Below, in pieces: positions 37,718 to 38,634 of a DNA stretch of 64,000 nucleotides (position 1 is the stretch's first letter; each line of letters begins with the position of its first letter). Where the stretch lies: assembly GCF_054482525.1 (NCBI RefSeq), contig NZ_CM137006.1. One strand, 5' to 3'. The position numbers and the translations under genes were made by a program. The notes below the pieces were generated by a model. That model saw only the letters and a program-made list of their open reading frames with translations. It ran no database searches and had not been told where the DNA came from.

Positions 37718-37853
37718 CTTATCACTAAATGTATAATCTATAATATTTATTTTAATAATTTCTTGTGTTTTCTAATTATAGTATGTTAATCATTTATTGG
37801 TGATGCTGCCAACTTACTGATTTAGTGTATGATGGTGTTTTTGAGGTGCTCCA

Positions 37854-38129
37854 GTGGCTTCTGTTTCTATCAGCTGTCCCTCCTGTTCAGCTACTGACGG
37901 GGTGGTGCGTAACGGCAAAAGCACCGCCGGACATCAGCGCTATCTCTGCTCTCACTGCCGTAAAACATGGCAACTGCAGTTCACTTACACCGCTTCTCAA
38001 CCCGGTACGCACCAGAAAATCATTGATATGGCCATGAATGGCGTTGGATGCCGGGCAACAGCCCGCATTATGGGCGTTGGCCTCAACACGATTTTACGTC
38101 ACTTAAAAAACTCAGGCCGCAGTCGGTAA
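37854..38129 (+). CDS. insA: IS1 InsA
   Basis: 91-aa [27 protein letters not shown]... with zinc-finger-like CPSC...CSHC. Confidence 0.9.
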
Positions 38130-38551
38130 CCTCGCGCATACAGCCGGGCAGTGACGTCATCGTCTGCGCGGAAATGGACGAACAGTGGGGCTATGTCGGG
38201 GCTAAATCGCGCCAGCGCTGGCTGTTTTACGCGTATGACAGTCTCCGGAAGACGGTTGTTGCGCACGTATTCGGTGAACGCACTATGGCGACGCTGGGGC
38301 GTCTTATGAGCCTGCTGTCACCCTTTGACGTGGTGATATGGATGACGGATGGCTGGCCGCTGTATGAATCCCGCCTGAAGGGAAAGCTGCACGTAATCAG
38401 CAAGCGATATACGCAGCGAATTGAGCGGCATAACCTGAATCTGAGGCAGCACCTGGCACGGCTGGGACGGAAGTCGCTGTCGTTCTCAAAATCGGTGGAG
38501 CTGCATGACAAAGTCATCGGGCATTATCTGAACATAAAACACTATCAATAA
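38048..38551 (+). CDS. insB: IS1 InsB reading frame (expressed as an InsAB' fusion by -1 frameshift)
   Basis: 167-aa ORF in the -1 frame relative to insA; slippery aaaaaac at 38105-38111. Confidence 0.85.
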
Positions 38552-38579
38552 GTTGGAGTCATTACCTCATTTATTTAAT

Positions 38580-38634
38580 GAATGGGAGTTTATGAATGGT
38601 TATGTTAATGCCATTCATTGTGATGTTTTTTTTG
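38580..38634 (+). terminator. Possible plus-strand terminator (hairpin plus T8) overlapping the kpsS 3' end
   Basis: Inverted repeat aatgaatgg...ccattcatt followed by gatgtttttttt; lies downstream of the IS1 copy. Confidence 0.3.

Follow-up and report, generated by a model that had tools for sequence, protein, structure and literature searches.

The group 2 capsule locus analysed here carries a complete IS1 element between the last gene of region 2 and kpsS. We argue that this is very probably an ordinary, recent and strain-private IS1 transposition that is neutral or nearly neutral, where the part of the reading that concerns its effect follows from the geometry of the site. The window is a stretch of 64,000 nucleotides from contig NZ_CM137006.1 (assembly GCF_054482525.1), and it holds a single IS1 copy, at 37799-38566. 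The insertion alters none of the capsule reading frames, starts or stops.

The insertion and its target

The locus is an E. coli group 2 (kps) capsule cluster, as judged from its open reading frames, the annotation of collinear genomes, a Capsule_synth Pfam match for KpsS and a JUMPstart element. kpsMT lies at about 25846-27311, with the kpsM ATG at 25846. Region 2 (27543-37717, + strand) has seven genes that are co-directional with kpsMT and convergent with kpsS. The region 1 genes kpsS, kpsC, kpsU, kpsD, kpsE and kpsF are all on the - strand. The genes around the insertion are:

35079-36248, + strand, UDP-glucose dehydrogenase gene, penultimate in region 2
36251-37717, + strand, family 2 glycosyltransferase gene, last in region 2, intact (a later start is annotated in IS-free genomes)
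38615-39856, - strand, kpsS, 413 aa, intact and of the same length as IS-free alleles

IS1 begins 81 nt after the glycosyltransferase stop (37717) and is separated from the kpsS stop by 48 nt, with the second copy of the duplicated 9-mer counted in. Without IS1 the spacer between the two genes is 120 nt long and 80% AT. IS1 prefers AT-rich targets. The initial annotation had put this gap at about 130 bp, which is the right order of size, although the empty-site spacer measures 120 nt. A search for Rfam families within 37700-38700 found none.

The element and its borders are made up of the following parts:

37790-37798, left 9-bp copy of the target-site duplication, TCATTTATT, directly adjoining IRL
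37799-38566, + strand, complete IS1, 768 bp, 767/768 identity to IS1A copies annotated in strain 2452
37799-37821, + strand, IRL, the left terminal inverted repeat, GGTGATGCTGCCAACTTACTGAT
37854-38129, + strand, insA, 91 aa, zinc ribbon and HTH (Pfam PF03811, 1.3e-21; PF12759, 4.7e-31)
38048-38551, + strand, insB' frame, DDE transposase domain (DDE_Tnp_IS1, PF03400, E = 5.9e-78)
38105-38111, AAAAAAC (A6C) slip site for the -1 shift, within InsAB' (37854-38551)
38544-38566, + strand, IRR, the right terminal inverted repeat (reverse complement GGTAATGACTCCAACTTATTGAT)
38567-38575, right 9-bp copy of the target-site duplication, TCATTTATT, directly adjoining IRR

This is IS1 proper and not a relative, since each defining feature that was tested is present. 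IRL and IRR agree at 18 of 23 positions, and imperfect repeats of about 23 bp are what is expected of the IS1 family. The Pfam domains matched by insA are Zn_ribbon_InsA and HTH_Tnp_IS1. It overlaps insB' in the -1 frame with an A6C slip site, as in the IS1 family, and the InsAB' fusion (232 aa) is open across that site with no internal stop. The duplication of TCATTTATT is perfect at 9 bp, where the family norm is 9 bp and sometimes 8. Given the local base composition, the chance of an identical 9-mer at both fixed flank positions is about 7e-5, and IS-free alleles, with one 9-mer at precisely this point, confirm the duplication independently. The one difference from the two IS1A-annotated copies of strain 2452 (NZ_CP031833.1) is at 38437, which is G here and not A. 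The two junction k-mers of the insertion are AGTATGTTAATCATTTATTGGTGATGCTGCC and GGAGTCATTACCTCATTTATTTAATGAATGG. Borders, repeats, open reading frames and empty site all agree with what had been noticed at the outset, a complete 768-bp IS1 flanked by identical 9-mers.

An IS1A-like IS1 moved into the AT-rich 120-nt spacer, most likely from another site in the genome, and its 9-bp staggered cut at the target duplicated TCATTTATT. The intact ends and reading frames, along with the recency of the insertion, suggest that this copy is active.

Empty sites and the age of the insertion

The comparison set was 5,426 complete E. coli genomes, 1,743 of them kps-positive. The occupied site is covered by none of the 5,426, and many records are exactly 777 bp shorter. 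A query built from the reconstructed empty site finds the region-2/kpsS junction uninterrupted, with a single 9-mer, in 109 of the 5,426 genomes. The matching region-2 end is present in exactly 109 genomes, and the whole of region 2 is present at 99% identity or more in 39 of them. A further 70 complete genomes share only the last two region-2 genes, at about 94-99% identity. The left-junction 38-mer had no exact match in the metagenome contigs scanned. In the longest public contigs that encode an identical KpsS, IS1 is absent and the glycosyltransferase gene is 120 nt away in 24 of 24, where it must be noted that short-read drafts break at IS elements and could hide occupied sites.

The nearest relative is strain AH50 (poultry liver, China), which is collinear with positions 13487-64000 of the window. 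There are no differences between the two across the 24,312 bp to the left of IS1, and the first difference on the right is at 47808, 9.2 kb away. AH50 has an empty site with a single copy of TCATTTATT, and so does strain 2452. The latter aligns to the window as two blocks, one of 12,189 bp (1 mismatch, 1 gap) and one of 12,071 bp (1 mismatch). What the two blocks have in common is exactly the 9-bp target duplication. Since the flanks are identical to those of AH50 and the site is empty elsewhere, the insertion is younger than the ancestor shared with AH50, itself very recent. It is a recent event and, on the public data, private to this strain. The perfect duplication had been taken as a sign of a recent event, and that reading is borne out by the 109 complete genomes with an empty site and by the 24.3 kb and 9.2 kb of flank identical to AH50. 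A comparison with IS-free alleles had been proposed beforehand; it returned a single 9-mer and 109 uninterrupted junctions, and no fixation of IS1 was seen.

One might suspect that the assembler misplaced a repeat copy, and that the insertion is an artefact. E. coli genomes hold many IS1 copies (a median of 11 matching places each), and the occupied site is in no other record searched. However, a misplaced repeat would not explain why a 9-mer present once in the empty site is perfectly duplicated here. The flanks also abut to the base once IS1 and one 9-mer are removed. We consider an artefact extremely improbable, and a real and recent transposition is the reading we keep.

AH50 differs from the window at 64 positions in all, and 61 of these are clustered at 56-58 kb. 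The cluster (56000-58400) covers an Ag43/Cah autotransporter gene (54428-57349) and the sequence upstream of it, and suggests a recombination patch on an otherwise identical background. The same area has an Rfam match to IS102 RNA (57293-57529, - strand, 79 bits). Two other AH50 differences (47808 and 48298) sit in an IS4 element. Its transposase gene (47363-48709) and an IS110 fragment (about 48800-49000) lie just past kpsF, and both are likewise found there in strains 2452 and AH50.

Transcription across the insertion

Three features bear on transcription around IS1:

25779-25817, + strand, JUMPstart/ops element upstream of kpsM (RF01707, 58.5 bits; gathering score 35)
37783-37812, - strand, candidate weak hybrid promoter-like site, with -35 TTGGCA in IRL, an 18-nt spacer and -10 TAACAT in the flank
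38592-38633, + strand, AU-rich hairpin and T8, with a 9-bp stem (38592-38600 with 38610-38618), a 7-nt spacer and the T8 at 38626-38633

The ops sequence GGCGGTAG is at 25806-25813, just upstream of the kpsM ATG. PR3 transcripts read into region 2 via ops and RfaH (PMC8960920). By that published model and the JUMPstart/ops element found here, transcription from region 3 into region 2 is predicted to be RfaH-antiterminated. Neither a consensus scan nor folding gave a terminator-like site between 37717 and 37799, so region-2 transcripts must enter IS1. The initial annotation had stated that transcripts of the serotype block must cross IS1 or end inside it, and their entry is correct by geometry.

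The same annotation had described a convincing hairpin and T8 downstream of IS1. The stem and the T8 do exist, but the scan and the folding make an unconvincing terminator of them. An intrinsic terminator has a stable G+C-rich stem-loop with a U-tract directly after it. The stem at 38592-38633 is AU-rich and is followed by a 7-nt gap, and the consensus scan made no call there. On the + strand it folds at -13.4 kcal/mol (z = -0.81), a value equalled by 41 of 200 shuffles. We reject it as an intrinsic terminator. The 3' arm of the hairpin covers the kpsS stop codon (38615-38617), and the T8 falls in kpsS codons where it encodes lysines. In IS-free strains region-2 transcription probably passed this weak hairpin as well. 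If so, IS1 lengthens the read-through path and removes no functional stop.

We also considered whether IS1 splits a structure of the empty spacer, and this too was rejected. Just one local hairpin involves the 9-mer (38567-38585), and it survives whole on the kpsS side because the 9-mer was duplicated. For the left spacer, the fold is not better than that of shuffles (z = -0.39).

Effect on capsule expression

The insertion point is the shared 3' end of two converging operons: the region 3/2 operon on the + strand and, on the - strand, the region 1 operon, whose last gene is kpsS. The strong polarity of IS1 has no gene to silence here, as the last gene of each operon comes before the element. 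RfaH-modified region-2 transcription would enter IS1 in the insA sense direction before it reaches kpsS in antisense. Region-1 transcription would enter IS1 in antisense, past the kpsS stop and the retained hairpin. The only change to be expected would be 777 extra bases at the transcript 3' ends. An effect should be weak a priori because IS1 is at a shared 3' end, the frames are intact and the kpsS-proximal hairpin is still beside kpsS. An effect of IS1 on capsule expression is thus a priori unlikely, and judging from the geometry the phenotype is most likely none or small.

Nevertheless, it is worth considering how IS1 could measurably alter capsule expression. There are three routes. An outward-facing hybrid promoter at IRL could yield RNA antisense to the last glycosyltransferase gene, transcription from insAB' or region 2 could read through in antisense into kpsS, or IS1 could act as an insulating spacer that changes the collision of the two converging operons. 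The first route has a candidate in the promoter-like site that runs from 37812 to 37783 across the left junction, which points antisense into the glycosyltransferase gene and is the only junction-spanning promoter candidate. An outward-facing IS1 promoter has been proposed to drive genes in another kps arrangement (preprint, bioRxiv 10.64898/2025.12.15.689991). However, the site here has only 9 of 12 matches, and promoter-like sites are rarer in the region than in shuffles (5 observed against 6.3 expected). For the second route, the RfaH-antiterminated state predicted for region-2 transcripts and the lack of a terminator-like site ahead of IS1 both speak in favor of read-through. However, the weakness of the hairpin and T8 means that region-2 read-through antisense to kpsS should already occur in IS-free alleles. 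The initial annotation had also suggested that outward transcription from IS1 could run antisense into kpsS. That is not supported: the promoter scan of the right IS1 end found no promoter-like site facing kpsS, and an outward promoter there is rejected. For the third route, the 777-bp separation of the converging operons could in principle change transcriptional interference or mRNA 3'-end stability. Every frame and the kpsS-proximal hairpin are intact, which counts against all three. We regard a measurable change in capsule expression by any of them as unlikely.

A stronger version would make IS1 a regulatory insert at the operon convergence, tuning the amount of capsule through antisense RNA from IRL or by absorbing RfaH-driven read-through. 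We give that at best an outside chance. A neutral or nearly neutral insertion remains the better explanation of this site.

Other features of the locus

The seven region-2 products are two large hypothetical proteins, a GT2 of 664 aa, the UDP-galactopyranose mutase of glf, an acyltransferase, UDP-glucose dehydrogenase and a further GT2. This gene content suggests an O-acetylated polymer with glucuronic acid and galactofuranose. glf is confined to three loci of a published K-locus database, KL93, KL53 and KL164, which cluster together there. These three are the candidate K types for region 2.

The 3' end of kpsS (38615-38690) also differs between K types. Similarity to kpsS of other K types ends at about 38686, and the final 24 or so codons, which are AT-rich and lysine-rich, go with this region 2. 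Together these imply that a recombination boundary between region 1 and region 2 lies within kpsS. KpsS has 413 aa here, against 389-398 aa in K5, ST131 and the other loci inspected, and its Pfam Capsule_synth match stops at residue 389.

Far from the insertion, among the genes of the glc/sslE region, there is a full-length match to the sRNA family C0719 (RF00117, 297 bits) at 5864-6085 on the - strand.

Significance

Insertion of IS1 without gene disruption is a common and well-described kind of event. Taken alone this one carries little weight, and it is best seen as a clean, well-dated case of IS1 at the AT-rich region-2/kpsS boundary. IS elements are thought to drive K-locus diversification at this boundary (PMC13171598). 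The new IS1 is a portable repeat that could seed later IS1-mediated deletions or rearrangements of the capsule locus. The insertion has a practical use as a strain marker, and K-typing tools and short-read assemblies will break at it. If IS1 did alter capsule expression here, known IS-mediated regulation would gain one more modest case.

Comparison with other insertions in kps loci

Of 4,996 unique K-locus sequences of groups 2 and 3, 28.2% contain one or more IS, the most frequent families being IS1 and IS3 (PMC13171598). IS variants of K loci are catalogued as such in the same work, which also reports IS elements between kpsS and kfoC in K4-like loci. For the K type found here, there is no such IS1 insertion in any complete genome searched. 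Among the 1,743 kps-positive genomes, 6-7 have an IS1 in this orientation no more than about 1.5 kb from the kpsS 3' end, and 3-4 have one there in the opposite orientation. Three of these insertions were inspected:

K5 strain 1428_w1, IS1 in kfiD, 9-bp duplication CATTTAGGT
ST131 isolate 86, IS1 near kpsS, 9-bp duplication TTATTTGTT
Blood isolate AHB24, IS1 near kpsS, 9-bp duplication AACATAATT

Each has its own perfect 9-bp duplication, which makes them independent events. The region-2/kpsS boundary is thus struck by IS1 repeatedly and independently, but rarely.

In ST131 isolate 86 (NZ_OX637961.1) the IS1 is at 4008-4775 of the extracted locus and directly adjoins kpsS. The kpsS CDS of that isolate (4771-5967, 398 aa) ends within the right end of IS1, and the natural C-terminus of kpsS appears to have been lost to the insertion, with IS1 sequence in its place.

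Strain 2452 has an IS1 of its own at 3550-4317 of the extracted locus. This corresponds to about 25610 in the window, which puts it some 235 bp ahead of the ATG of kpsM. No target duplication flanks it (left flank ...GGGAATGCG, right flank AAGACCGAA...), and on its left are unrelated genes (fatty acyl-AMP ligase, ACP) instead of the gsp operon. This looks like an IS1-mediated deletion or rearrangement. PR3 is located 741 bp upstream of kpsM (PMC8960920), and with that position the rearrangement would remove PR3.

Structurally there is no difference between the copy described here and IS1 of the IS1A/IS1R type from the Enterobacteriaceae. They share the length, the inverted repeats, the insA/insB' A6C frameshift, the 9-bp duplication and the AT-rich target. 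The 'KLx-1' type variants of the Kaptive G2/G3 database (PMC13171598) likewise have IS1 between region 2 and kpsS with the capsule genes unchanged; compared with them, the copy here is intergenic throughout, has no cargo and leaves every gene uninterrupted. The insertions in 1428_w1, ST131 isolate 86 and AHB24 are of the same element in the same orientation, in AT-rich DNA at the region-2/kpsS boundary. They differ in where exactly they landed. The IS1 of 1428_w1 splits kfiD, whereas the copy here sits cleanly between the two stop codons. The IS1 of ST131 isolate 86 abuts or overlaps the annotated kpsS end, and the copy here does neither. Another inspected IS1 lies about 400 bp from kpsS, whereas this one is 48 nt from the kpsS stop.
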